Part shown: in pieces, positions 20,706 through 49,745 of the stretch
Layout: each line of letters begins with the position of its first letter
Numbering within the stretch: position 1 is the stretch's first letter
Source of the DNA: Malacoraja senta
Lineage: Eukaryota
Direction: 5' to 3'
DNA: 64,000 nucleotides
Assembly: GCA_038087875.1 (NCBI GenBank)
Contig: CM075990.1
Location: forward strand, 620,001 to 684,000
Notes under the pieces: model-generated
Databases searched by the model: none
What the model was told of the DNA's origin: nothing
The model's input: the letters and a program-made list of their open reading frames with translations, nothing else
Made by a program: the position numbers and the translations under genes

Positions 20706-21875
20706 ATACGGGTGCAATATAATAGGTTCAATAGATAATAGAATAGGAATAGGTTCAAATGAAATAGAAGTAATGAATGTGTGGGAAAGTAAGAGTGCGT
20801 GATGGTAACTTGCTTTGTCCCAAACTTCTTAGGATTTTCTAGGGTTTAGGTTCAACTGTGGAAGATGATGGAAGACTGGGCAGGAACACGGATGGAGGGA
20901 ATTCACGCCCATGAAAACTCGGGAGGTGAAGACTCCTCAGACAGAACTTGTGAAGTCATGCCCATGAAAATTCAGGACGCTTGTCAAGATTCTGAGAAGA
21001 AACATCATCATCTTGTGTTACTGATGGATGGGAAATGCAAAGCACACTTATGTATATCTGGTTAGCTGATTATTGAGCCACTTTGGTTATCATTAATGAT
21101 GGGTTATCATTATGATTAAAGGAAGGAATGTTAATCCTGGCTAAATTGGAGCAGCTAGGACTTCAAAATGGGGTTAAGTTTGAGGGTTGCTGGGAGATTT
21201 GGTCAAATTGGAATTACTCTCTGCAGAGCTGGGACAAGCTGCAGAGAGGTGCCAGAGTGTCTGGAGCTTAGATACAATTTGCAAGCAAAGAATGGGATAC
21301 TCTGCAAACCCTGTCAATCTGGTGCAAAATGCATAGAATGGATTGGATGGCTGCAAACCAGACATACACCTTATAAATAGTTGTAAATAATGTTGCAGAG
21401 TTTGACTTTGCCAAGTGTTGATTGGATAAGGTGTTGAGCCTTGTCTGGGTTTTCTGTAAATCAGGGTAAATGTTTCCAAGTTGACTTCCTCTCGAAGTCC
21501 GTTTTCAATACAATGTATTGAACTGTTGTATCATTGGGTTAGGGGAATGGCTGTTATGTATGGGATTAATCGATATCTGTAATTGGGTTATTGAGAGACC
21601 ACCCGCATGTGATTCGGCCCATTGAGGACCCGGGACATATAAAAGTCTGGAAGAGCGCTCGGGAATGCGTGAACTTCATGTGTGCCTCAGTCTGAGCGAG
21701 GCCTAGAGGGCTTGAAAAGGCGGACACGAGGATCGAACCGGCGGTGGGATAGATACAGTGTGTGATCTGTGACGCGCTTTTGGTAAAATATAATTTAGTT
21801 GTTTCAAGTGCTTGATGCAGTGTTTTTACTGAAACTAGACTGGGGGGAAGCTTAGAAACGAGAAATTATCATAGG

Positions 21876-22303
21876 GAGATGCACTGCTTTGTACCATCCA
21901 GGCCTGGATTGGAGGGGGATTCCTTGGGTCTTTCAAGCTTGGATATAAGGTCGGCTTTTTTCCTTGGAGTTTCTGGCTTTTCCGTTCTCTCACCCTCTTC
22001 CCTTGTCATATTTACCACCTGGTATAATTTCCTCAACCTCTCTCCTTCCGCTCTAAAGAGCTTAAGTACATCTAACTCCTTTTCTCTCTTCTTTTTTTGC
22101 GTTTCCAACATATCTTTGGACCTATAATTCTTAATTACCACTTCCATCTCGTCACACATATTTATATCAAAAGTGCCTTCCTTGGGCCACTTTGTCAGCA
22201 ATTTTTCCGTACTTTTTTCCCATTTCTCAGAGTGCTGTATAATGTCCTCTTTAGATACAGGGAATGTTTTACTTAGTAGTTCAACTGCAGTTACCTTACT
22301 CAT
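21876..22303 (-). pseudogene. gag: ERV-A gag N-terminus (matrix), copy 1
   Basis: MSKVTAVELL...KWPKEGTFD (matrix WPxxGTFD motif); cut by ERV-B. Confidence 0.8.
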
Positions 22304-25298
22304 TGTATTATCTTGTTCAGTGCACTTTATCAATCAGTCCAGTCGAAGTCCTTATTCTTATTCCATCCCATTCCTGTAGTTACTACACTATCCTATACAC
22401 TGTCTCTTTCTAAGAATTTTGGCAGGGAACCAGATCAACCTACTACGAAGGACCTCAGTGTTCCCGGGAGCTTCTTTGGGGAGTCAGTCTCAAAGGGTCT
22501 GACTAGTGCATTTTTCTCTCCCCATCTGATCCCGGTGAACCTGCTGCCACTTACTCAGTTGTTGGTTGAAGGTCCCAACGAAATCCCAGCTGGCTTGCCA
22601 AATGATAATGTTTGCATCTTAAAAAACAGACAAAATACAATGAATTAAAGTAAACCATACAAGCTTTTACTTTTTACGTCAAACGGGAGTGGCCAAAGAT
22701 GTTACAGTCCAGAAGAATCCAGTGATACTTTTGGTTCCCCCAAAATGCCACTTTAATTAACAAAAATCCTGGGGTCTTTTATACAAAATAGTCACATATG
22801 CAGAATATCAGGGGCATTATGTAATGTCCCAAAGTGCAACAGTCCAGTCTTAACATGTTGTTTTTCTGTGCCAGCTAGTGGCTATCCTGTTGTAAGTTAG
22901 TTCCATTTTCAGGCCTCTCTTATCTGATTGAACTTTTTCAACCAGAAAGCTTGCCTGAAAACACCATAAAATCTGGTCATGTGTTCCAGCAAGCAATACA
23001 ATAGCAATTAAATTATTTTCAATTGTTCCAATCCATCTCCCCAATATTCTCAATTTCAAATTCCTAGTATAAATATATACTAATAACAATTTCCCAAATT
23101 AACATTTTTAAAAATATATTGGCTTATCCACTCTCATCTAACACATGGCCAGTGTGGCATCCAAGTTTCCTTTCGAACTCAATTCAAAAGATAAGAAATA
23201 AGAAGAAAACAAATTTAAAACATCAATAAGACAAAGCAACCTACATTTTTTTTCATCTCTCCTCTGTTAAAAGTTAAGAGAAAATAAAGAATGAACAGTT
23301 AATTTTCATAGATTGGTAACACATTTGCTAAGAACAAAGGAAAATAAAATAACTGTGTGTAGCTCCGCCCCCATACAATTGCACTTTCTTAAAGGCACAC
23401 ACTACCTCTTGAAATACATGAGACTCTACAAAGATTTATCACATAAAAGAGCAAGCTCAGTCAATGATATCCTACTTCATCTGAAGTGTAGGATTAAATC
23501 AGCATTCATCCAAAACCGCTTCCACAAACAAGCAACAGTCTTCTCATTGTCACTTCAAAGAAAACATGCAACTCTTAATACTTTGATACACCCAAATACG
23601 TTCATACATTGGTCATAAATTCAACACATACTGAAGAACAGTCGCGATCCAAAACATACATTTAGACATTCTTATGGGATGCAAGCAGAAGCCTCCACGT
23701 GGCGCATCCCGGGCAATGCTGACGACAGAAACTGTACCACAGTGACTGACTGAAGTAGCCAAATCTGCAACCACCGTCAACCGGACCGTCAACCGTCACT
23801 GACCGACCGGAAAGACATGATATAGAAGATGGCCGGACACGAGGAAGAAGAAGAAATTCTTATATCCCTCTCAACCCTCTCCCTCCCTCCGTTATTGATA
23901 CTCCTCCTCTTAGACACTGCTTATTTCATAATAGCTTCAAGGTGTAAGCAACATTCCACACATTTCACATTCCCTTTCCTCCTTCCCAACATACACAAGT
24001 TTTATCCGAGAGCAGTATGCCAGAGGGGCGCAGTCCTCTCGTTTCCATAGTTTTTATAATATACAAAGGCGTCCCCTTGTAATTAATAACTCTCCCCTTG
24101 TCTGACAAGACCGTTCTGTTTATTAGAATCTTTGGTTCTGTGGGGACTAGTATAAAGAATTTGCAAGCTGCTGTGCGGGCAGTACTGTAAGCTTGGGCCT
24201 TCCCCTGGGAGACTGCTTTGTCGGGCCACTCATATAGGCATTGCACTTAATAATGGCCAGGTGGAGTGGGAGAACTGAGGCTTGCAGTGTGGGTATCGTT
24301 GTCTTTAAGTTGGGAAAGTCTTCTTGTTGGAATGAGAGAGTTAAAATGAGACGGATTAATCTGCTAGGAATGGGCAGGCATATTTCACAGTGGGATGGTC
24401 CAATTCCCTGTCAGTCAGGATCCTGGGCGCTGTGATTGGACAATGATCCAGATTGTGATTAGTCAGACTCCCTGTCACTCAGGGTCTTGCCACATGCCAC
24501 ACCCATCAATCTCCACAAACAAAGCCACAAACTCTCCTCTTTGTCTCTCTTCACCAGAGGCAAGCTCGCTGCTTTGTACCAAAAGTTATTCAAAGTTCGA
24601 AGGCAAGTTTGTTTTAAACAAAAATACAGGCTGTTGGCTGGGATTTAAAGTTCTTGAGCAGCCTTGATTCTCATGCTTATTTTTCTTCTGGTCTGTCTGA
24701 TGTTTCTCTCTCTGTTGCTCTGTGTTGTTTAACTCTTTCACCTGGATTCAATACTGCTCCTTCTTCCTCTCCTGCCTCAGCCCTTTCCCTTCTTCTTTCT
24801 CATCTGCCTTTTCAGTCTCCAAGTCGCTATCAGTATCATTTTTGTCTGGGGGTGCCTTCCCTGTAGGGGTGCTAGAGCCTCCCCCCATGGGATATTATAT
24901 GGGGGAGGTGGTCTACACTATTCCCGACTTTGTTCCTCACTCCCCACCAAATTTGTTCCTTCATCCCCACTCTTCTATAAACAGGGTCGCTATGCCAGAC
25001 AGGTGGTCTCCAGAAAAATTACCAGCACAGGGTTTGTTCTTAACTAATAATTGCTTGTTCTCTGAACTCTTCATATCGGCGCTTTCTTTCTCTGCCTTGG
25101 CCCTTAACAATTTGCAATTTTATGTTACCTAATTAGTCCCTATTCTCCCTGACTTTACCTGTTCTGCCCGTTCAGACCCCTTACTCTTCTAAAGGGCAGT
25201 ATCCACAGAATGCTTTGTCCATTCAAACCCCTTTCTCTTCCTAGGGTGGTATCCACATGATCTTGTTCACATCACACAGAATCTACTTTCTCAGATCA

Positions 25299-28200
25299 AT
25301 TTTACTTCGGAGTCACGTGAGTGATTCCGTGAAGAAGTCCCGCCAGAGCGCATGCGCTTCATTACGTCAGTCGTATTAGCGCAGGGAGGAACAGAGCTCC
25401 TCCAGCGGTAAGTTTGAAAAATCCTGCAGGTAAGTTTAAACTTACTTTTCAGGTTGTCCGTTGCAGGAATCTCTTCTCGCAGGTTCCTACTGGATATCAA
25501 ATTGAGCATAACCCGGTGGACCGCGGGGAAATTGTTGACCGCGGGGATGCCGGCTTCAGACAGCGGAAGTGCGGTAGCAGGCGGCCGGTGGGTTTTGCTG
25601 GTTGAGTCGCAGACAGAACGGTCTGCGACTCCCGAGGTTTAATTCGGGCTGCGGGGTTTTGTTGACCGCGGGTTATGCAAGCTACGGTCATGATAGACTG
25701 CGGGTGGCTGTTGGGCTTGTTGTTTCAAGTCGCTGACAGGGAGGTCAGCAACTCCCGAGAGGGCCGTGGGGTTCTCTAGACCGCGGGGATACCGGCTACG
25801 GTCGGCGGTAATCCCCGCGGTCGGACTTTGGCAGCCCATATGAAGGAAACCATGTGGAGCCTGGCCAGGAGGGTCCCCTCTGTCATATATGTATGTCCTC
25901 ACACGTGCAGTATCCTGAAATGGTGAGCCATATCAGGGCAGGTGATCAGGGGATTGCGGCAGCACCTGTGTTTTCAGGGCTGCTTACCAATTCCCTCAGT
26001 GGAGAGAAGTACAAGGGGTCAGTGTGTGGCTGATCCCAACCCCAACCCAGGAAGTGAGACTAGTGGTTTATCATCCTTATGTGTCTATGGCAGTAGCATT
26101 TTCTGCTAATTCTGTGGAGGTTTCAGGTGTAGGTCCAAGCTGGCCTTCAAGGAGAATTTACAATTCGCGCATCCCGGCATTGCTGCCCTCCAAATTAAGG
26201 ACGAACGCAAATTTTGGAAGCGTTCAAAAGGGTAGACATTATAGTTGCCACTAGGTCACGTTGTGACTATCATACTGAGACAGATGATTATCATTTACAC
26301 AATTTAGGAAATGGGAAGCCTTGTTGAGCTGTATTATCAGTCACCTGTGGGAGTTACACCAGGCGGCGTCATAGTAATTCTGCTCATTAAAGGGACTGTG
26401 CACGTTTTCTTCCCCAAGACGCCGGATTATTCATATTAAAAGTAAATAAATCCCAGATTTAACTGGGATGGGCGTCTTCATTCACATAATGTCTTTGCCT
26501 ATGACAAATAACTGTTAAGTTGTCGAACAACATGCTTGGTACAGAGGCATGTACAAGCAAATGGAAGAGATGGATGGTGATACCTGCTTCAGCTGCGATT
26601 ACTCCCACTCTAAAAGTGTGTCTAAGTTAGTATGGATTAACTCCAAACAGGAATCCGAACATGGCTATGTGCCGGGATCCCATGCTGAATGCATAAGGCA
26701 CGACGATCGCATGAGGGAAAGCAGCGGGCGTTGCCTCTAAAATTGCTGCTCAGTCGGAGATGGACTAGCCACTACAAGAGAAGTTGGCCAGCAGCATCAG
26801 CGATCTAATGGAAAAGAAAAAAACATGGTAGTGAATCTGCTCAGGGATGAAAAGGGTAGAGCTAATAGACAGCTGTATCAAGCTAATTGAGGAGCAACAG
26901 CCTTCAATTAGACAGGTGGCAAGTCTGCTTGGAAAATTAGTGGCAGCATTTCCGGCAGTTCAATATGGGCCATTGCACTACCAACAGTTACAGAGGGCAA
27001 AGGAACAGGCACTAAGGATACATTTGGGTCATTATAATAGACCCATGCAGTTATCAGCAGAGGCTGTTGCTGATTTGCAATGGTGGATTCAGCATGTGTT
27101 CAGTAGTTCGAGCATTATAGGTGCTTGAGCAGCCTTCCATGATTTTGCAGACGGATGTCAGTGCACTCGGGTGCGGTGCCACGGATACGAGTTCAAGCTG
27201 TGGAGGCAGATGGACTGAGCAACAGGGATCGCTTCTGCAGACATGGGGAATTAACTATTTAGAGCTTTTATGAGCTTTTTATGGACTTAAGGCTTATTGC
27301 TCTAACAAAGGTAACCGGCATGTTCAGTGTCAGATTGACAACACTACGGCAGTGGCATATATTAATCACATGGGTGGAATCAAGTCGGTATCTTGTGACA
27401 GATTGGCTAATCAAATTTGGGCCTGGTGTATTGATAAAGATATTTGGCTTTCAGCTATTTATCTACCAGGTAGATTCAAACTGTAGCAGACGCCAGGTCA
27501 CGAACGTTCCATGACAACACAGAGTGGATGTTGAACCAGGAGCTGTTCAATAATATAGTAGTTACATATGGAATGCCAGATATCGATTTGTTTGCATCCA
27601 GGCTTAACCACCTGCTGCCTAAATATGTTTCATGGGAACCAGACCCGGGGGCAGTTGCAATTGATGCTTTCTCGCTACATTGGGGTGGTATGTTTTAATA
27701 TATTTTCCCACCATTCTGCCTCATAGGTCTGCAAAAAATCAAGCAGGATGCCGCTTCGGGGGTGCTTGTAATACCTAATTGGCCGACTCAAGCATGGTTC
27801 CCTTTGATGTTACAGTTAGCAATCCAACCTCCTTTGGTGGTTCCCAAGAGTAGGAATTTACTGCAGCACCCGGTAACATGGGAAAGTCATCCGTTATGTG
27901 ACCGTATTGATTTGTTAATTTGCAGGTTTTAAGAAGGCCATACCTGGGGCGAGGACTATCTGGGCAAACTGTGGAATGCTCACTGCAGCCTAGAGAAAGA
28001 GTACTCAAAAGCAGTATATTACTTATGTAAAAAATGGGAGCAATATTGTGTACAAAATAATATTGACTATAGTACTGCAGGTATTGTGGATGTTTTAGAG
28101 TTCCTGTCGACACTCTACTATGATGAGGGGCTCAGTTTTTGGCGCCATTAATACAGCTAGAAGTGCTTTGTCCTCGTATCTTTTGATGGGGTCAGGGAAA

Positions 28201-29197
28201 GATCCTATTGGTTCTCATCCTCTCATAGCTCGATTGATGAAAGGAATTTTCAACTCCAAACTAAACCCAGGTATATGGCAATCTGGGATGTAAGTGTGGT
28301 CCTCAAGGTGCTTCGTCAGTGGGTTTCAAAATTGTGTTTTCAGCATATCCTACTGATTCATGTATATGTGTAAGGACACATTTATTACATTATATTGAAG
28401 CTACTTGGGCCTTAAGAAATGTGGAAACTGGATTGTTATCAGTAACAAGAAACCACACAAGAGAGTGTCAGTGCAGACTATCTCAAGGTGGTTAAAGCAA
28501 GTGCTGATTCAGGCAGGTATTAACACTGACGTGTTTACATCTCATTCCACTAGGGCAGCAGCAACGTTGGCGGCCATATTCTCGCAGCCGCCGGGTGGTC
28601 AAATGAATTGGTTTTTCAACATTTTTACATTGGCTGATTGCCGATCGGGGGCTGTTTGCTGATTCAGTATTAAGTTCTGTTTAAGTTTCCCCCCTCGCAT
28701 AGAGGGCTTACTGTTTGTTTTGATTATTCAAACAAATTGTTACTGCATGATATTCAATTTCATGTTTAACGCATTATTGATTATTTCTCATCCAGAGTCA
28801 ATCAATGCAGTGAGAAGCCGGGATTTGAATCTACGGCATAAAATCACAGAGCTTTGAACTCTTCACGGAATCACTCACGTGACTCCGAAGTAAAATAGTA
28901 AGATTAAACGAGAACTTACCAGTTTGAAGTTTGATCTTTATTTTATGAGGAGTTACGTTGGTGATTACGTGCCCACCACGCCCAACCCTCTCTCTCATAA
29001 AGGTCATATGGTAGTTCTCATGTTGCTGATCTTACTATGTTACTTCAAATATTCTGTTATCTGTGATTTCATACCGCTGCTTTGAAGATTGACGCGCATG
29101 CGCTCTGTCGGGGCTTCTTCACGTAATCACCAACGTAACTCCTCATAAAATAAAGATCAAACTTCAAACTGGTAAGTTCTCGTTTAATCTTACTATT
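25299..29197 (+). mobile_element. DIRS1-type tyrosine-recombinase retrotransposon, internally deleted (copy 1)
   Basis: Left ITR from 25299; ICR 28861-28971; right ITR plus extension 29091-29197; ATT at both ends; RNase H (LQTDVS, INYLEL, IDNTTAVAYINHMGG), methyltransferase-like (DLFAS..FPPF..PNWPTQAWF), YR (HSTRAAAT). Confidence 0.93.
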
Positions 29198-29243
29198 ATA
29201 TTCTATTTACCGTACTGCGCAGTCTTCTCGAGTAATCCTCCGG

Positions 29244-29443
29244 NNNNNNNNNNNNNNNNNNNNNNNNNNNNNNNNNNNNNNNNNNNNNNNNNNNNNNNNN
29301 NNNNNNNNNNNNNNNNNNNNNNNNNNNNNNNNNNNNNNNNNNNNNNNNNNNNNNNNNNNNNNNNNNNNNNNNNNNNNNNNNNNNNNNNNNNNNNNNNNNN
29401 NNNNNNNNNNNNNNNNNNNNNNNNNNNNNNNNNNNNNNNNNNN
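29244..29443. other. Assembly gap (200 N)
   Basis: Run of exactly 200 N. Confidence 1.
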
Positions 29444-30056: not shown

Positions 30057-33000
30057 GTCCCCTTCTCTGTTTATATTCCCTTATTTCCTTCTCATCGTCC
30101 CAAATTGCAACCTCTCCTTCTACCTCCACAATTCCCTTGGAGCACTGCTTTGTACCGTCCGGGCCTGGATAGGTGTTAATCCCGGCAAAATTGGAGCAGC
30201 TAGGACTTCAAAATGGGTTAAGTTTCAGGGTTGCTGGGAGATTTGGTCAAATTGGAATTGCTCTCTGCAGAACTGGGACAAGCTGCAGAGAGGTGCCAGA
30301 GTGTCTGGAGCTTAGATACAAGTTGCAAGCAAAGAATGGGAAGATCTGCAAACCATGTCAATCTGGTGCAAAATTTGAGGAGAGAGTGTTTAAGTTAGAT
30401 ATTTGTTTTTGTTTAATATCGTTTTGTAAGAATCTGAATCGGGGTGGTTTGATCAGGGGTTGTACTCCTTCGATCGCTGCGCCGGGGGAGGAGTCATCCC
30501 GCTGATTGATTGCGCCACGAGGAAGATTAATTAGAGTGGGGTTTACTGGATGCTTATAGTTTATATTGGGGTGTGTTTTGGGTTATTGATAATTGGGGGA
30601 ATATTTTTTTTTTTAGTCATAGTTTTGTTAGCGTGGTTTGGGTTCGTTTGTTTGTGCCAACTTAAAGTTAATTAAGCGAGAGAGAGACTGCTGCGTGAGA
30701 GACTGCAAGTGGGAGTTAGACACTTTGTTTGAAAGTTTTGGAATTGAATGCTGTGATTGTGATTTAACTGATAAGAGAGTTGAAGAGACTGAATAGGAGC
30801 GAGTGTTTGAATAATTAAACAGGAGTGATTGGGAGATAGTTGAAAGGAAGCGATTGCTAGAGTAAGTGTGAATCGGAAAGATCGTTGACCATTGTGTGGG
30901 AGAAATTTCATTGACCTTGCAGTCTGAGAGTAGTAGTAAGAAAAAGAGGTGTTAGTGTCTGGAACCTTTATTTTACTATTTGTGTTTTGTCCATTGTTCC
31001 GAGATGGGGAATGTCTCGATCAAACAGATTGGAGAGCCCGATAAGGATAATTTGCGGGGAGCTTCCAAATGAGCGGATAGACTGAGAGAATTATCAGGGA
31101 AATAAATGCAATTTTAAAAGACCAACTTTGGCCGTTGGGGGGAATAAATTCTTTAATCGGATAAACTATATAGAGACGATCGTTAAAAATATGGGAATAG
31201 TGAAGAAGCAAACGAGTTAATTGAGATGTGGAAGATATTCTTCACTAAAAGAAAAATAAATAAATAAATTGTTTTGCTGCCACCCTAAGAATGGCGGCTT
31301 GTAAATTGGGAATAGGAGAAGACGATAGAAATGATCCTTCTCAGGACATTTCAGAGTAGGGACAAGGAGAACTAATAAACCAACAGCAGGAGCAGGAGAG
31401 AGTATCGTCTTTTGAAATGGAGACTGCTGAAACGTCTCTTAAATGGAAGTGCCGACGGAAATTAAATCGGGTAAATCGGGTAAGAATGAGAAAGGGGCTG
31501 CACACCTTGAAGGGACTTGTATGCCAGGGTGGGCAGAATTCTCGGAGTAGATATAGAGCACAGTATTCCTCACAGAACTCTCATGTTCCCAATTTGGAGA
31601 AACCGTGCGCAGCCTGCGAGCGGGGCACACGGGAGGAGTCAGCGTTAACTTTGGCTCCTCCTCTAAAATTAAATCTAACGTAGAAACATCAGGGAGAGAT
31701 CTTCTATCTCCAGGGGAGGACAATAGGGGAAACCAAGGAGCTAGAAAGAAGTCTTTGTAGTGGCCTGGATGAGGTCAGGAAAAGGCCAGATGCCAGGCAG
31801 GTTCAGAAGTCGTTTTAATGAATCATGGCAAACACACAGAACGCCCGCGAGCAGGACCCGGGAAACCCCGTGGGCAGACAATTGTCCCTGTCCCTCAAGA
31901 GCTGAGGGGGATGACCCAAGGAGTGACCTAACCGCCAGGGACCGCCACAACTTCATCCACATGGGTGCCAAAATTAATTAGGGATTCTAGTAGTGAAAGA
32001 ATAAAAGAATCTTTCTTGAAGTACCGGGATAAAACAATAGCCTTTCAGGGGCTGAGATAAGGGGAGAATATGGATGGATTCGTTTGGACATAAATAATAT
32101 TATGGTGTCAAACAATTCAGCACGGAAGAGGATTTAGTAAGAACACCCTGTAGACAATGTGTTTGTAGGGAGATGCCCGCATCATGTATAAATGTTCCAC
32201 AGACCACAGACAGTCAGACATCAAGGCAACCTGGTTCAACGGCAGCCTGGAGATTAGAGGTCCGAATAAAAAAGATAAGAACAAATGAGGATAAGGAGGA
32301 AGAAGACCTTATGCCTGGATAGACCTCCCATTTACAGAACCAACATTTCCTAGGTTTGCCTGGCGAGGTTGTAGAGCAATCCGGCCCGATCAGCGTTTTA
32401 GTTGTGGGGGACTAGGGCACTGGAGTCGTTCGTGTCCCATGAGAGAATATCATCAGGAAGGAAGGGGGCAGAGAAGGAAGCCATGGGGTCACGGAAACTG
32501 ATGGATTCCAAGGGGGTACCGAGGCTCCTGTGACCCTGAAGGTAGAGGATGGGGACGCTGGCAGGGGGATCAGAGGGAAGGGACATTCCAACAGTCCAAC
32601 CCATTTTTGGTAGCCCTAACCAGCCAGTTAGCAGCAATACCATCTGATAAAATAAAAGGCGTCCTCACCTGACCTAAGAAACAGTACTGTACATTACACA
32701 GGAACACCACCCCTTCCAAATAGGAGAAAATACATTGAATCTGACTCTCAGAGAACCCTCACTTAAGGCCGTGTCTTACCTGTTTGCGGTCATCGGCGGT
32801 GAAGCGCGGTGTAGACGGTAGCGAGGACCGCGCGGCAACGGCGAGAGCGTCGAGCCTATCCACCGGAGCATCGCGCGGATGCTGCGCGGGGGCCGAGTGA
32901 ATCAAATAGGGCGGGTCCCACGTGCTTGCGGTAGGTTAAAAAAAATGTTGATTTACCAGAAGCTTTTGTTGCACGTACGTCGGGTGATCATCGCACGGCC

Positions 33001-33785
33001 TGTCGAACGAGCATGCGATCCCGGACTTTGACGGGAGGGACGGAGGGAGGGGAACGTCCATTATTTTTTCAAGCTCGAGCCTGACGTCATTTGAAGCAGA
33101 GTCTGGAAATCTCGAGCCTGACGCCATCTTTATTTCAGGTAAACAAAAAGTAAAGGAATGTGTTTTATAAAAGTCTATTTTATAAATGACCACAGACTCG
33201 TGAGACAGGCCTTATAGTTAGCTTTAGAATTGCCCAAAAGATCTTTATTTCATCAGTTGAGTAGAACATGTTTACATTCTTAAGGAAATAAGCATATTTG
33301 GAGGGAAGGAGGGAGGGGGACGTCCATTTTGAGAGGAGTCAAGCTCGAGCCTGACGCCATTTGGAGCAGAGTCTGGAAAGCTTGAGCCTGACGCCATCTT
33401 TATTTCAGGTAAACAGAAGTCGCTGGCTATTTTTTGTTCTTAAAACAACATGTGTTATAGAAATGTGTTTTATAAAAGTCAATTTTATAAAGGGGGTTAG
33501 GGTCTAACAATTGTAGACCAGCAATAACAAAGTTAGTAATAACAATAGGATGATGTATATACAAAAATAAATCAGTGGTCACTCGTGGTTGTCTGCATGG
33601 AGTTTGTAAATCTGAGAACCATTTTCTTAGAGAGACCATGAACATAGAACAGTATAACACAGGAACAGGTCCTTTGGCCCACAAAGACCTGTCAACTCTC
33701 CACACGTTAAATTTTTCAGAATATTCACACTTATTCTCTCTTAATCTTGCAGCAAACTCGATTAGGACCTGTAAACTACTGCACA

Positions 33786-35084
33786 ATGGAAGACATTGAC
33801 ATTGCATTGCTGCTACACCAACATAATCTTCTCTTAGCAGCAGCCATCATGGTTGCAGGTCATCCGTGCAGCAGTTCAACAAAGAAGGTTATGAAGAAGA
33901 AGCCCAGGAAGAGGTCTGTGTGGATGAGGCCTTTGTTCCTGATGAGACCTACTTTGGGCCAGTATGAGACCATGATGACGGATCTGCAGCGGGTAGATGA
34001 TGCTGCCTTTAGAAATTTCACCAGGATCCCGCCTGACCTGTTTCAGGAGCTCAAGACACGAGTCGGACCTCTACTGCAGAAAATGGACACCGTCATGCGG
34101 AAGTCACTGGAACCAGGCCTGCGCCTAGCCATCACCCTCCGCTACCTTGGATCAGGGGATTCCTACAAGAGCCTGTCGTATAACTTCCGTGTGGCTCACA
34201 ACACCATCAGCGGTGTAGTCCGAGAGACGTGTGATGCCATCAACAAAACATATGATGAGCTTATTGACTGCCCAACTACACCAGACGGGTGGAGGAGTGT
34301 GGCGCACGGCTTTCAAAGCAGATGGAACTTCCTGCACACATGTGGGGCTGTTGACGGGAAGCATGTGGCCATCCGGTGTCCACCCGGGGGAGGTTCTGTG
34401 TACTTTAACTACAAGAAGTTCCATTCCATCGTGCTGTTAGCTGTGGTAGATGCAAACTACAACTTCATGTTTGTGAATGTGGGCACACCTGGCAATGCCG
34501 CAGATGGAGGGATCTGGAGAGAGACCTCTCTTGGGCAAGCATTGGAAGAAGGGAGAGCAGGCCTTCCGGATCCAGAACCTCTGCCTGGAGAAGACAACCC
34601 TGACATCCCCTACGCACTGGTTGGTGATGATGCCTTTGCACTCAGGCCATGGATGATGAAGCCATACCCTCACAGGGGGGTGTCAAGGGAGCAAAGGATC
34701 TTCAATTACAGGCTGTCCAGGGCTAGGAGGGTAGTGGAGAATGCTTTTGGTATCCTTGCTAGCAGATTCAGATGCCTGCTTACAACAATGGAGCAGGAGC
34801 CCGAGAATGTGCAGGCCATTGTCTACGCGGCATGTGTCCTCCATAACCTGATCCGCACCAGAGGTGCGTCTGCAGCCTTGGTGGAGGGTGACACGATGGA
34901 CAAACAGACAGGCGAAGTCACACCAGGTTCATGGAGAGCTGCAAGACCGGCATCACCGATGATGGCACTAGGGTCATTGCAAGGAAACACCAGCAACAGA
35001 AGAGCAAAGGAGATGAGGGACCATCTCTGTGCGTACTACAACTCAGAGCGAGGCAGTGTACCCTGGCAGGACAATGTGTTTTGA
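33786..35084 (+). CDS. Harbinger DDE transposase (HARBI1-like), 432 aa, single exon
   Basis: LAITLRYLGSG (HTH); GAVDGKHV; NYKKFHSIVLLAVVDA; LVGDDAF; FNYRLSRARRVVENAFGIL; ACVLHN; no stops; AATAAA at 35364. Confidence 0.95.
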   Translation: MEDIDIALLLHQHNLLLAAAIMVAGHPCSSSTKKVMKKKPRKRSVWMRPLFLMRPTLGQYETMMTDLQRVDDAAFRNFTRIPPDLFQELKTRVGPLLQKMDTVMRKSLEPGLRLAITLRYLGSGDSYKSLSYNFRVAHNTISGVVRETCDAINKTYDELIDCPTTPDGWRSVAHGFQSRWNFLHTCGAVDGKHVAIRCPPGGGSVYFNYKKFHSIVLLAVVDANYNFMFVNVGTPGNAADGGIWRETSLGQALEEGRAGLPDPEPLPGEDNPDIPYALVGDDAFALRPWMMKPYPHRGVSREQRIFNYRLSRARRVVENAFGILASRFRCLLTTMEQEPENVQAIVYAACVLHNLIRTRGASAALVEGDTMDKQTGEVTPGSWRAARPASPMMALGSLQGNTSNRRAKEMRDHLCAYYNSERGSVPWQDNVF

Positions 35085-35688
35085 GGATCAAAAGCAAACA
35101 GGGGATGTCAGGGTTGTGTTTTCACGGCAGAGGTACCCGATCATGAAGGCCCCAGATCTTACAAAAGTGCGATCTATGTATGTTGATGGATGGTTTTACA
35201 TTGCGAAATTATTGAATCTGTGTTAATAGTACCACCTACATCACCTATTTTAAAGTTGCCTGATCTTGAAAGGGCTTAAATGCCATTGTATTATTTTCAT
35301 GGCTTATAATGAAAATTTTTGTAATTCAATGCTATTCTATGCCTGTTTGTGTTTTATTTCTCTAATAAATCAATGATTTTGTATGTGAGATGCATTCCAT
35401 CATTTCAGGTTGTTTCCATATGAGATCTACGCCGCGATTAACAGACACTTTTTTCCACAATACTATATTAAATTTAAACTGTTTATTTAGTGGAAACAAT
35501 TAACATATTGAAAAACAAGCAATTCTTTTTAAATATGCAACACAATTCAACAGAACATTGTTCATTAGTGAAAGCAAACAAATAACGTCGTGAGAAAACA
35601 GTGAATTGAACGGTAATGTGCAACACACAAGCAGGCACAACAGTGAATTTTGGGGGCAACGTCACTCCTACGGCACATGTCATTCTTA

Positions 35689-37549
35689 TTAATTATATAA
35701 GTCTGCGTCTTCGTTGCTGGAGTTTGTGCCATCTTCGGGAACCTCAAATTGTACATGGAATTCGCCTTCCCCTAGCCTATCCATGCCACGTGATGAACTA
35801 TGTTGCCGTGGGGTGTGTCCACTGACATAGTGGGGGGGGGCTGCCATCCAGGGGTATGTCACAGGACGGTATTCCATCCTTGCCTGTGGGCAAAACACAT
35901 AAGCGTATCAATATGTATCGGTGCCAAACAAATCATATAAAACAAATCACAACCTTTCACAAGCTGTGTGTTAGAGAAAATCATGAGTCAGGCTGAAGAC
36001 TCAAAAATGTTTCACAGTGTACCTGGTGGGGATATTGTGGTGGCATCCTCGTTTGTTGCAGTGGCACTAATGGCATATGCCTTATCGGACTCTGCAACAC
36101 AAAGAAAACCGTAGTAAATGAATCATAGACGGCATTAAATTAAAACTTTTTTAATTTCAATGAACTTTGATTTAAATATTTTACTGGCTGCGGAAGTCTG
36201 TGCGCCCTTGCCAAGGACAATCCCTCCATGCTGTAACGTTGCCAATTTTCCTCAGGGATTAAGAACATCTCCTCCCTGAGGAACATTGCATATGCATGCA
36301 CAACTCTCTCATAGGACGTCCTTGGCTGTGAGAAAGAGGTGATCATGCCCGACGTTGTCTTTGCCTGTTCCATGATCTGCAACAAGAGAGTACAATCATG
36401 ATAATTATATTGTGGGATGAGATGGAGAAACGTGGAAGTAGGGCGGAGTGAAAGAGATTTGATGATGGGTAATCCAAAAGCACTTACATCCCTGAACATG
36501 TCCCGTTGCAGAGTTTGGACAGGCACCTCGCTATCTGACGCAGTTGTGCTGACCCGCTTCCGTCTTGCATGCTGCTGCAGTTCTACCGCAGTGCATGACC
36601 CGGATGGTCCATGTGAAGGTCCTTCTAGCGGATCAGGCTCACCCTCACTCGAGTCCGCGCACGTTGATGCACCCACAGTACACTAGAAGAAAGTGAATGC
36701 GTATCATACATGTGCAAGGCCATCCGGACGTAGCAGGGAAAGTGAACAAGTTATCATTGTTAAAAATGTTTTGTACTGACTTCCCAACTAATATTTATTG
36801 TCACATAATTTTCTGAGTTACTCACCTTCCTGCAACTTTCCTTCGTGTGCACTCTTACAATGTGGTCCCGGACGAACCCCCATTTGTCATATATCCACTG
36901 GTCTCTGTCAGTCAGTTTCCTACTGCCAGAGCCAGACTTGCTAAGACCTTGTGATATTTTGCCGAACCGTGTCCTCTGACTCTTTAGCCATTGGCACAGT
37001 TGGTCATCTGTGAAAAGATAGCATAAATGAAGATAAGTGTTGAGCAAATTATAATATGAATTTGAACCTCAATTACAAACACAGAAATGTAGATAAACTG
37101 AAAGATATGTACTTACAAGAGCAGGCAGGGAACTCCTTCGCCTTTTCTCCAATTATGAGGTTACGGAGACCCCTGTTCCTAAAATCACGGTTGGTCTTAT
37201 CGTACAGCTCATGGTGGGACTGATACCATTCCACCAGGTCCCCCTCTTGCTCTCGGGAAAAATTATATGGCTGTGAGCCAGACCTGTTCCACACCCATGC
37301 AGGGACATAAGCTGGAGTAGGACATGGACCAGCAGATGGAGAAGCAGATGGGGCAGCAGATGTAGAAGCAGTTGAGGCAGGAGATGGGGCAGGAGATGGG
37401 ACAGGTAATGAAGCAGGGGCAGGGGCAGGGGCAGGGGCAGGGGCAGGGCCAGTGGCTGGACCCTCCAGCACCTGAATTTTATTAGCACCCATACTAATAT
37501 TCTGTACTTTATCCTGCAGCGATCTCTTCACACTCCTTGTTCTCCTCAT
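35689..37549 (-). CDS. Harbinger MADF/Myb-SANT-like DNA-binding protein, 6 predicted exons, 421 aa
   Basis: Exons 37549-37117, 37007-36826, 36682-36488, 36376-36185, 36091-36023, 35883-35689; all introns GT-AG; 1266 nt in frame; MADF-like LVEWYQSHHELYDKTNRDFRN..QWLKSQRTRFGK..SGSG..WIYDKWGFV. Confidence 0.85.
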
Positions 37550-39371
37550 GTTGCTAGTCAACTGTCAAAATACTCCGTTTGAAAAACGCGGTAAAAATGC
37601 TACACTGTTGAAGTCTCAGATCTCGCGTGGTTTGGACGTGAACAGCAAAGAAAAAGGGCGGGCCGACTGCGATGACGTCATTTTGAATCTGATGGGCTGT
37701 GGCGGCAGCTGTCCAGATCGCGGCGCTGCAGCGGTGACTGTGCCTGCGGCCGTGCAGCACACGTGCGTCACTGGCGGCGGCACGTGCCTCACTGGTGGAG
37801 GCTGTGGCAGTGGAGGCTTGACGCACGGCGCTCGACCATACTGGCGGCGGGCCGTGCGAGCGGCCGTGCGCACTCGTGCATCACTGGTGGAGGTTGTGCG
37901 GTGAGTATAGTGTTTTCGACATTGTCGATTTTATTTTTGCACCGCGCGGTGTTGGGAACACCGTCGCACGGCCCGGGAATTGTTCTTTCTCACGAGTGCG
38001 CGGTCTATGGCAGCAGATTCTTCCCGTTTCGCCGCCAATGACCGCAGATTCGTGAGACAGGCCTTTAAGGGAAGAAGTACGATAGGGAAACATAGTAGCT
38101 AGCGGGAGGAGAGATAACAACATAAGGAATGGAAATGGCATTGGGGAGAGAAGAAACAAAATTACCATGCAGGAGGAATGGGAGTGGGGAAAGAAGATAT
38201 TGAATTAATGTATTGCTGAGTTTTATGCCTGCAGGACAGTATGTCAACAAGAGACTGTCTGGGGTGTGAGGTAAAAGAATGCACAGACCCCTAAGAACAG
38301 GAAGAAGCCAGCAAAAGGTAATGCAGCTCTCCAGAAAAAGGTGACCAGCAGGAAGAATTGATAGTGTCCTGCCCCTTTAAGACACTTGGGAAGGCCAGCA
38401 GGCAGAGCGACACGCTCCTCAGTATCTCCACTCCCAAGCAACTGAAACCATCAATAGAAAGGAGGAAGAAAATGACCTACCCTAGTGCCCAACTTTAATA
38501 TCACCTAGCTACTGAAGGAAAAAAAGGAAGGAGAATAAATGACACTTTAATCATCTTTGAAAGAAACAACGCCGACGACATAATGACTTCTGGGACAAAC
38601 CTCACAATAAAGTTTCAAATAAAATATTTATCTGTGGTTTGGAGTAAAATACCTGAATTGCATCTAAATTATGGGTTTTAGAAATAAATTTATAAATGTT
38701 GGACTCGGTCTCGAAATTGTATGGTGATGAATTGGAGGGACTAAAATTTTCAAGATTTGGAATAGACTTGTGGAATCTGACTTAGGACGAATTGGAGTTT
38801 GATTATCAACTGACATTGTTATTATCTCATCCCCAGAAAGATGGACAAAGATGGAAAGGATTATTCAAAGGGCATCAAGAAGGATGGAACTTGTGAAGAT
38901 CTGGTAACATGGAGTTACTTAGGGAATATGAGGGAATTAAAATCGGGATTAAAATTGGAATTAAACTCGAAAATAAAAATGGGAATGGTAATTGGAATTG
39001 GAATATAATTGGAAATGGTCAAAAGAGGAACTGTGAACAGCAGGACTTCCCTTTGAGAGACCGGATTAAGAAATTATTCAGCAGTTAAGAACTGTAAAAG
39101 CGAGAACCCCAAGACAAAGAACGAAGCCAACATAGTAAAAAGCCAACATAGTAATGAGCTAATAGAAAAAGAATCAACATAGTGGAGAATCAGCATAGTA
39201 ACGAGTTACCAGAGTGAGGAGTGCATACATAAATAAGAGGAGATACTGGAAGAAAGACTTGGTTAACTGTAGGGGGAGACTTGAATTGTGTTGGGAATAG
39301 CAGAGCCGATGTGTATTTGCCCGATGGATTTGAATTGTTTTACCTTTGATGGTAAAGCGGCTTATATTATC

Positions 39372-39952
39372 GGTACCCGGACGTGGCGCCGACAGACAAG
39401 AAGCCAAAGCAAAGAAGTCAAAGCCAAAGAACGGAATGGAAATGAGGCCGAAACCCCAATAAACCGTAAGTCCGAAAACCAAACGCCTACTAAACGAAAT
39501 TATGGGATGCCTAAATGCAAACTAACCGAAAGGGCGGGACGCCTAAATCCCAAGGAACCGAAAAGCTGCGTCGCCTAAAAGCAAACTTACCGAATCGCCG
39601 CTCTGTCGAAACACTACCTACCTGAAAGGGGGCGTCGCCTACAGGCCAAAGGACCTGGACCAATCGCTGACAAGTCCCGCCCCCCGACAACGTCAAGTCC
39701 GTTATTGGACTTTTCTGTTGAGCGGCAGTCGGTCCTTTGGCCTGTAGGCGACGCCGCCTTTTGGGTAGGTGGCGTTTCGACAGAGCGGCCATTCTGTAAG
39801 TTTGCTTTTAGGCGACGCAGCTTTTCGGTTAGTAGGCGTTTCATCTTCGGACTCTTTCGGTTTATTGTCGTTTCGGCCTCCCTTCCATTCCGTTCTTTGG
39901 CTTCGACTTCTTTGCTTCGGCCTCTCGTCCATCGGCGCCACGTCTGCACACG
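39372..39952. mobile_element. Long-palindromic non-autonomous DNA transposon (copy 2)
   Basis: Perfect 8-bp TSD ATATTATC at 39364-39371 and 39953-39960. Confidence 0.87.
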
Positions 39953-42414
39953 ATATTATCAAGGTGGAAATAAATTGTCCCTGGATTTGGCATTTTTGAT
40001 TGGACTTAGGATAAATGTAATAGTAAGGGAAATTGATTGTTTAAATTTGAACAGCTGGGAATTCCACAGGAATTGGAATGGAATTGTATTATCGGCTACA
40101 ATGCTGTGGGATGAGAAGAGGAAATGGGCATTGAAATTCGAAAAAGTAAATTGAAGGCTGAGACTGAATTTGGTTAAATTGGAATGTTTATCATGGTTTG
40201 CTTCAAATTAAAGTCACGCCAGTAGGGGAATCTGGACCGAACCCAGCTGAAATGTATATGATTACCTGTCATCAGATATACATAGTATAACACCGTGTGA
40301 GTATGAAGAAGGCTAATTAGTGTTGATCCTAGAATAATAAAGAATAAATTGGGGAATGGAATAGGGATATAGTAATAGATTCAAGATTCAAGAGACATTT
40401 ATTGTCACATGCACCAATTGGTACAGTGAAATTTGGGGTCACCATACAGCCATACGAATAAAAAAAGAACACAGAACACGATAGTCTTTAACATAAACAT
40501 CCCCACACAGCGGAATCAAAGTTTCCCACTGTGAGGTAAGGCACCAAAGTTCAGTCATCCTCCTCTTGATGTTCTTTGTTGTTCACAATGGCCTCTCGAG
40601 GCCCCTGCAGTCGCCGCAACGGTGGCCCAATGTTCAGGCCCTCTCGCCGGGATGATGGAACTCTGACGTCAGAACGGAGAACACCCTCAGCGGCTTGGAC
40701 TTCCGAATCAGCCACTTCTTACTGGAGACCGCGGATCCCGAAGTCCACAGGCTGGGCTGGGCGGAGATTCACACTGGCGGCCCTCGGCAAAGGGATCCCA
40801 GGACTCCGCGATGTTGAAGTCAGCGCTGCCCGTGGCTGGAAGCTCCCCAAACCACAGCTCCACGATGTTGAAGCAGCAGGCCCAACGCTCCGGAGCTTCA
40901 AACGGCGATCCCAGGTAAGGCATCGCCCGCTCCGCGATGAATCCAGTGCTGCGCCGCTGCTGAAACTCTGGTCGGTCTCCGGCAGGAAAGGCCGCGCCAA
41001 TCCAGTTGGTAGGCTGCGAGGGGGGGGAGCGAGGACGCGACTTGGAGAATAATCGCATCCTGGGAAACATTTTCCCCGTTACCCTCCCCACCTACCCCAC
41101 ATAAAAATACTAGGAAACTCCAACACATACTTTTTAAACAGACTAAAAATTAGAAAAAGATGGAAAAACAGACAGACTGTAGGCAGAGGCTGCCATCATG
41201 CGGCGCCCCTAGTGGAGACGGGTGCAATATAATAGGTTCAATAGATAATAGAATAGGAATAGGTTCAAATGAAATAGAAGTAACGAATGTGTGGGAAATT
41301 AAGAGTGCGTGATGGTAACTTGCTTTGTCCCAAACTTCTTAGGATTTTCTAGGGTTTAGGTTCAACTGTGGAAGATGATGGAAGACTGGGTAGGAACACG
41401 GATGGAGGGAATTCACGCCCATGAAAACTCGGGAGGTGAAGACTCCTCAGACAGAACTTGTGAAGTCATGCCCATGAAAATTCAGGACGCTTGTCAAGAT
41501 TCTGAGAAGAAACATCATCATCTTGTGTTACTGATGGATGGGAAATGCAAAGCACACTTATGTATATCTGGTTAGCTGATTATTGAGCCACTTTGGTTAT
41601 CATTAATGATGGGTTATCATTATGATTAAAGGAAGGAATGTTAATCCTGGCTAAATTGGAGCAGCTAGGACTTCAAAATGGGGTTAAGTTTCAGGGTTGC
41701 TGGGAGATTTGGTCAAATTGGAATTACTCTCTGCAGAGCTGGGACAAGCTGCAGAGAGGTGCCAGAGTGTCTGGAGCTTAGATACAATTTGCAAGCAAAA
41801 AATGGGATACTCTGCAAACCCTGTCAATCTGGTGTAAAATGCATAGAATGGATTGGATGGCTGCAAACCAGACATACACCTTATAAATAGTTGTAAATAA
41901 TGTTGCAGAGTTTGACTTTGCCAAGTGTTGATTGGATAAGGTGTTGAGCCTTGTCTGGGTTTTCTGTAAATCAGGGTAAATGTTTCCAAGTTGACTTCCT
42001 CTCGAAGTCCGTTTTCAATACAATGTATTGAACTGTTGCATCATTGGGTTAGGGGAATGCCTGTTATGTATGGGATTAATCGATATCTGTAATTGGGTTA
42101 TTGAGAGACCACCCGCATGTGGTTCGGCCCCTTGAGCACCCGGGACATATAAAAGTCTGCGATCACGAGGCTCAGCGTCGATCTTCTGGAAGAGCGCTCG
42201 GGACTGCATGAACTTCTGGTGTGCCTCTGTCTGAGCGAGGCCTAGAGGGCTTGAACAGGCGGACACGAGGATCGAACCGGCGGTGGGATAAGCACAGTGT
42301 GTGATCTGTGACGCGCTTTTGGTAAAATATAATTTAGTTGTTTCAAGTGCTTGATGCAGTGTTTTTACTGAAACTAGACTGGGGGGTAGCTTAGAAATGA
42401 GAAATTATCATAGG

Positions 42415-42853
42415 GAGATGCACTGCTTTGTATCACCCAGGCCTGGATTGGAGGGGGATTCCTTGGGTCTTTCAAGCTTGGATATAAGGTCGACTTTTTT
42501 CCTTGGAGTTTCTGGCTCTCATACTGCTTTTCCGTTCTCTCACCCTCTTCCCTTGTCATATTTACCACCTGGTATACTTTCCTCAACCTCTCTCCTTCCG
42601 CTCTAAAGAGCTTAAGTACATCTAACTCCTTTTCTCTCTTCTTTTTTTGCGTTTCCAACATATCTTTGGACCTATAATTCTTAATTGCCACTTCCATCTC
42701 GTCACACATATTTATATCAAAAGTGCCTTCCTTGGGCCACTTTGTCAGCAATTTTTCTGTTCTTTTTTCCCATTTCTCAGAGTGCTTTATAATGTCCTCT
42801 TTAGATACAGGGAATGTTTTACTTAGTAGTTCAACTGCAGTTACCTTACTCAT
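42415..42853 (-). pseudogene. gag: ERV-A gag N-terminus (matrix), copy 2
   Basis: MSKVTAVELL..WPKEGTFD..LYPSL. Confidence 0.8.
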
Positions 42854-45840
42854 TGTATTATCTTGTTCAGTGCACTTTATCAATCAGTCCAGTCGAAGTC
42901 CTTATTCTTATTCCAGCCCATTCCTGTAGTTACTACACTATCCTATACACTGTCTCTTTCTAAGAATTTTGGCAGGGAACCAGATCAATCTACTACGAAG
43001 GACCTCAGTGTTCCCGGGAGCTTCTTTGGGGGGTCAGTCTCAAAGGGTCTGACTAGTGCATTTTTCTCTCCCCATCTGATCCCGGTGAACCTGCTGCCAC
43101 TTACTCAGTTGTTGGTTGATGGTCCCAACGAAATCCCAGCTGGCTTGCCAAATGATAATGTTTGCATCTTAAAAAACAGACAAAATACAATGAATTAAAG
43201 TAAACCATACAAGCTTTTACTTTTTATGTCAAACGGGAGTGGCCGAAGATGTTACAGTCCAGAAGAATCCAGTGATACTTCTGGTTCCCCCAAAATGCCA
43301 CTTTAATTAACAAAAATCCTGGGGTCTTTTATACAAAATAGTCACATATGCAGAATATCAGGGGCATTAGGTAATGTCCCAAAGTGCAACAGTCCAGTCT
43401 TAACATGTTTTTCTGTGCCAGCTAGTGGCTATCCCGTTGTAAGCTAGTTCCATTTTCGGGCCTCTCTTATCTGATTGAACTTTTTCAACCAGAAAGCTTG
43501 TCTGAAAACACCATAACATCTGGTCATGTGTTCCAGCAAGCAATGCAATAGCAATTAAATTATTTTCAATTGTTCCAATCCATCTCCCCAATATTCGCAA
43601 TTTCAAATTCCTAGTATAAATATATACTAATAACAATTTCCCAAATTAACATTTAAAAAAATATATTGGCTTATCCACTCTCATCTAACACATGGCCAGT
43701 GTGGCATCCAAGTTTCCTTTCGAACTCAATTCAAAAGATAAGAAATAAGAAGAAAACAAACTTAAAACATCAATAAGACAAAGTAACCTACATTTTTTTC
43801 ATCTCTCTGTTAAAAGTTAAGAGAAAATAAAGAATGAACAGTTAATTTTCATAGATTGGTAACACATTTGCTAAGAACAAAGGAAAATAAAATAACTGTG
43901 TGTAGCTCCGCCCCCATACAATTGCACTTTCTTAAAGGCACACACTACCTCTTGAAATACATGAAACTCTACAAAGATTTATCACATAAAAGAGCAAGCT
44001 CAGTCAATGATATCCTACTTCATCTGAAGTGTAGGATTAAATCAGCATTCAGCCAAAACCGGTTCCACAAACAAGTAACAGTCTTCTCATTGTCACTTCA
44101 AAGAAAACATGCAACTCTTAATACTTTGATACACCCAAATACGTTCATACATTGGTCATAAATTCAACACATACTGAAGAACAGTCGCGATCCAAAACAT
44201 ACATTTAGACATTCTTATGGGATGCAAGCAGAAGCCTCCACGTGGCGCATCCCGGGCAATGCTGACGACAGAAACTGTACCACAGTGACTGACTGAAGTA
44301 GCCAAATCTGCAACCACCGTCAACCGGACCGTCAACCGTCACTGACCGACCGGAAAGACATGATATAGAAGATGGCCGGACACGAGGAAGAAGAAGACAT
44401 TCTTATATCCCTCTCAACCCTCTCCCTCCCTCCGTTATTGATACTCCTCCTCTTAGACACTGCTTATTTCATAATAGCTTCAAGGTGTAAGCAACATTCC
44501 ACACATTTCACATTCCCTTTCCTCCTTCCCAACATACACAAGTTTTATCCGAGAGCAGTATGCCAGAAGGGCGCAGTCCTCTCGTTTCCATAGTTTTTAT
44601 AATATACAAAGGCGTCCCCTTGTAATTAATAACTCTCCCCTTGTCTGACAAGACCGTTCTATTAGAATCTTTGGTTCTGTGGGGACTAGTATAAAGAATT
44701 TGCAAGCTGCTGTGCGGGCAGTACTGTAAGCTTGGGCCTTCCCCTGGGAGACTGCTTTGTCGGGCCACTCATATAGGCATTGCACTTAATAATGGCCAGG
44801 TGGAGTGGGAGAACTGAGGCTTGCAGTGTGGGTATCGTTGTCTTTAAGTTGGGAAAGTCTTCTTGTTGGAATGAGAGAGTTAAAATGAGATGGATTAATC
44901 TGCTAGGAATGGGCAGGCATATTTCACAGTGGGATGGTCCAATTCCCTGTCAGTCAGGATCCTGGGCACTGTGATTGGACAATGATCCAGATTGTGATTA
45001 GTCAGACTCCCTGTCACTCAGGGTCTTGCCACATGCCACACCCATCAATCTCCACAAACAAAGCCACAAACTCTCCTCTTTGTCTCTCTTCACCAGAGGC
45101 AAGCTCGCTGCTTTGTACCAAAAGTTATTCAAAGTTCGAAGGCAAGTTTGTTTTAAACAAAAATACAGGCTGTTGGCTGGGATTTAAAGTTCTTGAGCAG
45201 CCTTGATTCTCATGCTTATTTTTCTTCTGGTCTGTCTGATGTTTCTCTCTCTGTTGCTCTGTGTTGTTTAACTCTTTCACTGCTGGATTCAATACTGCTC
45301 CTTCTTCCTCTCCTGCCTCAGCCCTTTCCCTTCTTCTTTCTCATCTGCCTTTTCAGTCTCCAAGTCGCTATCAGTATCATTTTTGTCTGGGGTGCCCTTC
45401 CCTGTAGGGGTGTTAGAGCCTCCCCCCCATGGGATATTATATGGGGGAGGTGGTCTACACTATTCCTGACTTTGTTCCTCACTCCCCACCAAATTTGTTC
45501 CTTCATCCCCACTCTTCTATAAACAGGGTCGCTATGCCAGACAGGTGGTCTCCAGAAAAATTACCAGCACAGGGTTTGTTCTTAACTAATAATCGCTTGT
45601 TCTCTGAACTCTTCATATCGACGCTTTCTTTCTCTGCCTTGGCCCTTAACAATTTGCAATTTGATGTTACCTAATTAGTCCCTATTCTCCCTGACTTTAC
45701 CTGTTCTGCCCGTTCAGACCCCTTACTCTTCTAAAGGGCAGTATCCGCAGAATGCTTTGTCCGTTCAAACACCTTTCTCTTCCTAGGGTGGTATCCACAT
45801 GATCTTGTTCACATCACACAGAATCTACTTTCTCAGATCA

Positions 45841-49738: not shown

Positions 49739-49745
49739 ATATTCT

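Follow-up and report, generated by a model that had tools for sequence, protein, structure and literature searches.

A two-gene Harbinger element in a skate genome

We analysed a stretch of 64,000 nucleotides from the skate Malacoraja senta (GenBank assembly GCA_038087875.1, contig CM075990.1, positions 620,001 to 684,000 of the forward strand), referred to as the window and numbered from its first letter. The window contains a transposon that is almost certainly a two-gene PIF/Harbinger element of the autonomous type, in which a transposase gene and a convergent, putative MADF-type gene lie between terminal inverted repeats (TIRs). An earlier note on this DNA had described a very young and possibly mobile insertion between perfect TTA duplications. 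Here, we show that the two 3-bp flanks of the element differ from each other, that the left flank does not match the empty target, and that natural insertions of the family frequently carry such a foreign base; the excised element probably takes three bases along from its old site to the new one. The genome searched was one assembly of 1.94 Gb, from which all counts derive. Its RAG1 shares 96% identity with the RAG1 of the skate Amblyraja radiata and 84% with those of other rays. The element and its termini are as follows.

[quoted passage not shown]
32766–32801, + strand: left TIR, imperfect, 26 of 36 bases identical to the right TIR
38030–38065, + strand: right TIR, terminus CCTT, 26 of 36 bases identical to the left TIR
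33034–33491, + strand: subterminal tandem unit of ~270 bp, number differing between copies (direct repeats D1, D2 and D4)
33185–33213, + strand: internal copy of the right terminus (D8, 93%) inside the subterminal tandem unit, followed by ATA

The TIRs announced in the earlier note are present in imperfect form, and their left/right asymmetry is a trait of the whole skate Harbinger family. Both element ends are CpG-rich, as the note had stated, with observed/expected ratios of 1.45 and 1.18 versus 0.53 for the window. Assignment to PIF/Harbinger follows from the DDE_Tnp_4 transposase, the TIRs, a TWA target (W being A or T) with a net gain of 3 bp, and Tourist-like MITEs; empty sites carry one TWA and filled sites one TWA per side. 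Family comparison revealed 1–4 internal copies of the right end per element. ATA follows the internal copy at 33185–33213 in every one of the 42 matches that a pattern permitting WWA gave in the genome, and this copy is apparently not used as an element end; a candidate 448-bp mini-element ending there was rejected on the same count.

The transposase and its inverted repeat occupy the following positions.

33786–35084, + strand: transposase, 432 amino acids, without internal stop; Pfam DDE_Tnp_4, E = 1.2e-33
35100–35151, no strand assigned: inverted copy (83%, 52 nt) of the transposase coding stretch 34560–34611 (pair I1)

The stop-free frame was thus confirmed, with Pfam profile support, and so were its three acidic motifs VDGKH, GDDAF and VENAF, which hold the triad D190/D282/E318 and match conserved columns of 83 homologues. 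The nearest named protein, the uncharacterised LOC144593005 of Rhinoraja longicauda, is identical at 232 of 316 aligned residues (73%), yet it represents a distinct family, is partial and is not annotated as a transposon. Further named matches from sea urchins, crustaceans and teleosts are 41–58% identical, and a sequence search of the PDB with the transposase matched no solved structure. The inverted copy at 35100–35151 sits directly past the transposase stop codon and could fold back in the messenger RNA.

The second gene is predicted to comprise six exons.

37117–37549, − strand: exon 1 (predicted); Pro/Ala-rich N-terminus and first third of the MADF domain
36826–37007, − strand: exon 2 (predicted); predicted remainder of the trihelix domain
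36488–36682, − strand: exon 3 (predicted)
36185–36376, − strand: exon 4 (predicted)
36023–36091, − strand: exon 5 (predicted); other junctions possible
35689–35883, − strand: exon 6 (predicted), with stop codon; contains a run of nine G

Predicted splicing through five GT-AG introns joins these exons into 421 amino acids. The unbroken chain described in the earlier note was recovered, but five alternative GT-AG chains of at least 400 amino acids exist within the search windows used; the chosen chain has the best-looking splice signals, and its downstream junctions are only the best reading. All five GT-AG pairs are retained in 21 of 30 loci and in several copies that are 8–14% diverged. The MADF domain was scanned exon by exon. 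Exon 1 matches positions 1–31 of 84 of PF10545 (MADF; E = 7.6e-4) at a score of 20.2 bits that falls below the 22-bit Pfam cut-off. Exon 2 alone gave no Pfam MADF match, and its look-alikes in the ESM Atlas are Myb/MADF clusters (0.76–0.82), which we treat as a lead only. Looking for spliced homologues of full length, we found none for this protein, which is weak evidence. Judged from sequence, the second gene is likely of the MADF type. The G run of exon 6 varies in length between 8 and 17 and shifts the frame in many copies; the breaks that affect the gene at this run in most copies may partly be assembly errors.

Copies of the family and selection

A 28-base transposase motif has 78 exact matches in the genome and a right-end motif 3,908, with 0 for the control. 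Most of these ends belong to MITEs of about 500–700 bp, the 86 elements sampled at both ends being mostly 490–680 bp long, and the family comparison places one non-autonomous member in the window itself:

1592–2169, − strand: MITE of the same family, 578 bp, flanks TAA/TAA

Two rounds of searching yielded 84 loci (30 + 54), some of them duplicates or fragments. The transposase is open in 30 of the 84, and both frames are open, together with five introns and both ends, in three: the studied copy (L001), L007 and L010. Among 18 copies, the ratio of non-synonymous to synonymous changes (pN/pS) for the transposase and MADF genes is 0.30 and 0.48 for shared changes and 0.57 and 0.79 for private ones. 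Both genes are under purifying selection along the shared branches, and the weaker constraint on private changes is as expected if the transposon is selected only while jumping. In locus L006, a fold-back that adjoins an inverted MITE has taken the place of the left terminus.

Flanking triplets carry a base foreign to the target

The insertion site and its empty counterpart are defined by the following positions.

32763–32765, + strand: left 3-bp flank TTA, differing from the target triplet and probably donor-derived
38066–38068, + strand: right 3-bp flank TAA, identical to the target triplet
17554–17556, + strand: empty site TAA in the block copy that lacks the element, probably the second haplotype

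The left end of the span in the earlier note (32766–38064) stands, and the right end is off by one: since the family right end lies one base further, at 38065, the flanks read TTA/TAA at a TAA target and not TTA/TTA, a mismatch that had been missed. The absence of the element from the other block copy was confirmed. Twelve homologous loci of the target were retrieved, one of which is a filled site and one unmatched, and the remaining empty homologues read TAA in 10 of 10 cases. As the empty site in the window and ten homologues agree, the left TTA does not stem from the target.

We determined the flanks of a position-ordered sample of the family, comprising 91 right ends from the first 100 of the 3,908 listed, 86 of them with both ends; a first MITE set was excluded from the flank counts because its query contained the flanks and favoured TAA/TAA. 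The 86 insertions divide into TAA/TAA (42), TTA/TTA (17), TAA/TTA (13), TTA/TAA (5) and other combinations (9). In 60 of the 86 the two flanks agree; mismatches affect the middle base in 25 insertions and the first and the third base in one each (Fisher p = 1.6e-11). In element orientation, TAA is commoner than TTA.

Insertions into a defined position of a short interspersed element (SINE), designated site A, allow comparison with a large set of empty targets. Empty local copies (n = 169) read TTA in 117 and TTT in 32 cases and never TAA. In 84 loci we distinguished 59 separate insertions for which both junctions were available, and 56 remained after three odd rows were dropped: TTA/TTA 35, TAA/TTA 13, TTA/TAA 8 and TAA/TAA 0 (p = 7e-15), so that TAA occurs at exactly one end in 21 of 56. 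Target polymorphism was rejected, since a variant target would yield TAA/TAA, seen in none of the 56. At this site the foreign base lies more often at the left end of the element (13 versus 5, p = 0.10).

Genome counts of single junctions, made by hand, are consistent with these results and gave (i) TTA 58, TAA 16, TGA 3 and TCA 2 (n = 79), (ii) in the other direction TAA 63, TTA 12 and TGA 1 (n = 76), (iii) in a further count TTA 22 and TAA 2 (n = 24), and (iv) at a second SINE site TAA 49, TTA 4 and TCA 2 (n = 55). Among young full-length copies, at most 1.25% from the studied one, 7 of 14 distinct sites are discordant. Where the right flank is TCA or TGA, 17 of 28 insertions are discordant. 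Loci L207 and L225 carry a TCA flank where empty homologues read TTA (5 of 6) or TAA (9 of 11), and L080 combines a TAC target with a left flank TAA. The skate family shows only a weak C/G target preference beside TWA. The comparisons with empty sites show that the flanks have the form T-x-A, that one end bears a base not present in the target, and where this base lies. Loci L238–L291, picked up in counts (i) and (ii), represent a second Harbinger MITE family with near-symmetric TIRs, ~220–680 bp in length, with the same target and the same flank mismatches (discordant in 3 of 12).

Age and present activity of the insertion

The element lies in the second of two block copies (14858–29204 and 30057–49745), which are 97% identical, with 238 substitutions in ~14.3 kb and 26 one-base gaps; single-base indels are common in this assembly. 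They are separated by a scaffold gap:

29244–29443: scaffold gap of 200 N between the block copies

The block edges lie at or near contig ends on both sides of this gap, and the second copy runs into what we take to be a LINE-like (long interspersed element) tail at both edges. The apparent duplication is probably an uncollapsed haplotype pair, and could be a true duplicate. A gap with edges at contig ends is the usual appearance of haplotypes, and, provided that the empty block represents the second haplotype, the studied insertion is therefore probably heterozygous, segregating and unfixed. Contigs of two sequencing runs from one study (X1 and X2) cover the element and are too fragmented to genotype the site. 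The insertion target (17380–17600) belongs to an unclassified dispersed repeat that is 83–93% alike elsewhere (40 of 166 candidates scored).

The nearest copy differs from the studied element at 24 of 4,100 sites (0.59%). Among the full-length loci examined, no identical copies occur at different sites, the closest such pair differing by 0.22%, and pairs with shared flanks differ by 0.03–0.3%. Likewise, 22 young MITEs include no identical pair, the closest having 2 differences in ~603 bases. Compared with 13 young copies, the studied copy has 11 private substitutions. At the rate of 7e-10 mutations per base and generation given for the epaulette shark (PMC10587355; papers are cited by PubMed Central number and from excerpts of their text), 11 changes in 4,100 bases correspond to millions of generations, a rough upper bound that lost donors and assembly errors shorten. 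The element derives from the latest wave of the family, and this wave is old in generations. Its transposase carries private Gly122 and Asn237, absent from all other loci of the 84-locus set, in columns that are otherwise conserved (Ala in 81 and Ser in 63 of 83 homologues), and these two changes may have weakened it. The descriptions 'very young' and 'possibly mobile' are therefore not sustained: the copy is unlikely to be a currently active source and, on the evidence of its sequence, its being active at present at all appears rather improbable.

The reading of a very young element that is mobile at present and has duplicated TTA perfectly, in the ordinary way, would agree with the two open frames and the catalytic triad at one of only three such loci among 84, with the probable heterozygosity, and with the TTA/TTA flanks obtained when the right end is set at 38064. 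We regard it as improbable in view of the family boundary at 38065 and the TAA of the empty site, the 0.59% distance to the nearest copy and the lack of identical copies at different sites, the two private changes at conserved positions, and the age of up to millions of generations.

Origin of the foreign base

A normal duplication could likewise acquire a foreign middle base if gap filling or repair is error-prone, with no contribution of the donor. This would account for the missing signal of flank inheritance on trees and for some C/G middle bases at A/T targets. However, the foreign base is mostly an A↔T swap, which corresponds to the make-up of the flank pool and holds for 21 of 21 discordant clean rows at site A, whereas polymerase errors usually favour transitions. 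In addition, the TAC target of L080 received TAA, a change of the third base, and an error frequency of 30–50% per insertion would be extreme, which makes gap-filling errors quite improbable.

Panhandle pairing of the two ends followed by repair would render the flanks complementary, and ectopic exchange would swap flanks between insertions. The commonest discordant pairs are indeed self-complementary (18 of 26), but a complementary left flank is found in 0 of 28 insertions with TCA or TGA at the right, which argues against end-to-end conversion. Furthermore, 10 of 36 positions still differ between the two TIRs, and at site A a single uninterrupted SINE supplies both flanks and retains the 3-base spacing; we consider either process very improbable. 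Later mutation or assembly error at boundaries of T/A runs, conceivable given the frequent one-base indels (26 between the block copies) and the variable G run, is hardly credible, as A↔T changes affect only 10 of 2,552 cells (0.4%) at 56 control run boundaries inside the element, the outer flank bases differ in 1 of 86 each, and discordance is not lower in the youngest MITEs (2/8, 6/19, 15/47 and 24/83).

Carry-over of donor bases, which we consider the probable source of the mismatched flanks, could proceed as follows. The MADF protein would bind the element ends and recruit the DDE transposase, as inferred from work on PIF/Harbinger elements (PMC2836001, PMC9179366), and both proteins would act in trans on thousands of MITEs of 500–700 bp. 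The transposase would cut the flanking triplets in a stagger, so that a 3-nt 5′ overhang of the donor is kept at each end; after strand transfer into a new TWA target, the overhangs would pair into the 3-nt gaps, without trimming and resynthesis. Where donor and target differ (TTA versus TAA; rarely TCA, TGA or TAC), a heteroduplex with one mismatch per junction, on opposite strands, would result, and replication or repair would often fix the base of the donor at one end, the opposite end receiving that of the target, as observed. Concordant flanks would include cases of equal donor and target as well as repair towards the target, and the studied copy would represent a TTA donor and a TAA target. 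We infer the donor origin of the foreign base, the polarity of the overhangs and the roles of both proteins. In this way, a model put forward for mPing of rice would be extended to insertions that occurred naturally in a vertebrate. On balance, we lean slightly towards the wider statement that PIF/Harbinger elements make no true target-site duplications (TSDs) but, like piggyBac, install 3-nt donor overhangs without gap filling, so that each jump can rewrite the target base.

Several results weigh against donor carry-over. A nearest-neighbour test for inheritance of flanks was negative, with 27 of 47 left flanks (0.54 expected) and 14 of 47 right flanks (0.46 expected) being the same; inheritance along trees gave no signal, young MITEs included, and no donor–daughter pair was observed. 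The youngest subfamily has no clear excess of right flanks TCA or TGA (17/100 versus 13/100, by hand), and the lack of TAA/TAA insertions at site A does not differ significantly from what independent ends would give (p = 0.18). The picture at SINE site B is less clear, with TAA/TAA in 16 of 23 insertions and polymorphic empty copies (TAA 20 and TGA 7 of 36). Loci L076, L069 and L002 have matching flanks (TWA or TGA) that differ from their few empty homologues (GAT, TAC and TTG), which the simple model accommodates only if donor bases won at both ends or if local target variants existed. From rice, altered TSDs of mPing do not steer target choice, and the excerpts of the same study report no mismatched flanks at new mPing insertions (PMC4561436).

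Comparison with known systems

The earlier note had presented the element as a possibly intact, natural vertebrate Harbinger. Intact and transcribed vertebrate Harbingers are already published (PMC8437027, PMC9179366), and this headline is therefore not new in kind; its novelty was overstated, given 269 fully intact copies in the sea krait Laticauda colubrina and RNA reads over both Harbinger genes in L. laticaudata (PMC8437027). Harbinger-Snek of Laticauda resembles the skate family as a vertebrate two-gene element with intact copies, short non-autonomous derivatives and a recent expansion. The skate family differs in its host and in having far fewer intact copies (3 of 84 loci), and mismatched flanks are unmentioned for Harbinger-Snek in the excerpted text (PMC8437027). 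An active Harbinger has been reported in a nematode (PMC13668399), and Harbingers have been reported lost in the elephant shark (PMC9179366). We found no literature report of a Harbinger family in skates and, for mismatched flanks at natural Harbinger or Tourist insertions, none beyond engineered mPing, in a search that lay outside Repbase, subscription journals and supplements.

Rice Ping/Pong/mPing share with the skate family the two proteins, the TWA target and the MITEs (PMC4561436, PMC2836001, PMC11254759). Staggered cleavage of the TSD with 3-nt 5′ overhangs was inferred for mPing excision (Gilbert et al., PMC4561436), and the donor TTA arrives with mPing at Cas9 cuts (Liu et al., PMC11254759). 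As far as the excerpts go, the rice work concerns excision and engineered breaks and describes free insertions as intact duplications, whereas natural skate insertions show a donor-like base in ~30%. Zebrafish Harbinger3_DR, as described in excerpts of PMC2836001, likewise pairs a vertebrate transposase with a Myb-like protein, but is a consensus reconstruction that prefers a long target, in contrast to the natural skate copy with its weak C/G preference.

A mechanistic parallel is offered by piggyBac, provided that donor overhangs move along with the skate element and base-pair at the target. piggyBac differs in belonging to another transposase family, in using a single protein and a 4-bp TTAA, and in a hairpin intermediate that has been shown (PMC7351741). 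The 3-bp TWA flanks and the Pfam DDE_Tnp_4 assignment place the skate element outside piggyBac. The invariant, palindromic TTAA of piggyBac hides the mismatch that the degenerate TWA exposes. Li et al., in 2013, reportedly described mutations at non-canonical piggyBac sites.

The element itself is of an ordinary kind and shows recent amplification of Harbinger in cartilaginous fish. Little is known about the integration chemistry of PIF/Harbinger transposases, and the flank pattern makes a simple test with a marked donor possible. If identical TSDs are required in annotation pipelines, ~30% of genuine insertions would be lost, and a Harbinger vector that inserts and is excised again could leave the site with a point change. 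If donor carry-over holds, each jump can record the donor flank, as thousands of natural insertions of the skate family would show, and the intact natural copies L010, L007 and L001 would provide a vertebrate two-component system to prove it.

Other features of the window

An Rfam scan of the window gave no match. At 12688–13416 on the − strand lies an open stretch of 243 amino acids with an HHCC-like motif reminiscent of the integrase of a long terminal repeat element or retrovirus. Tandem minisatellite arrays at 62004–63344 yield a low-complexity open frame of 210 amino acids.

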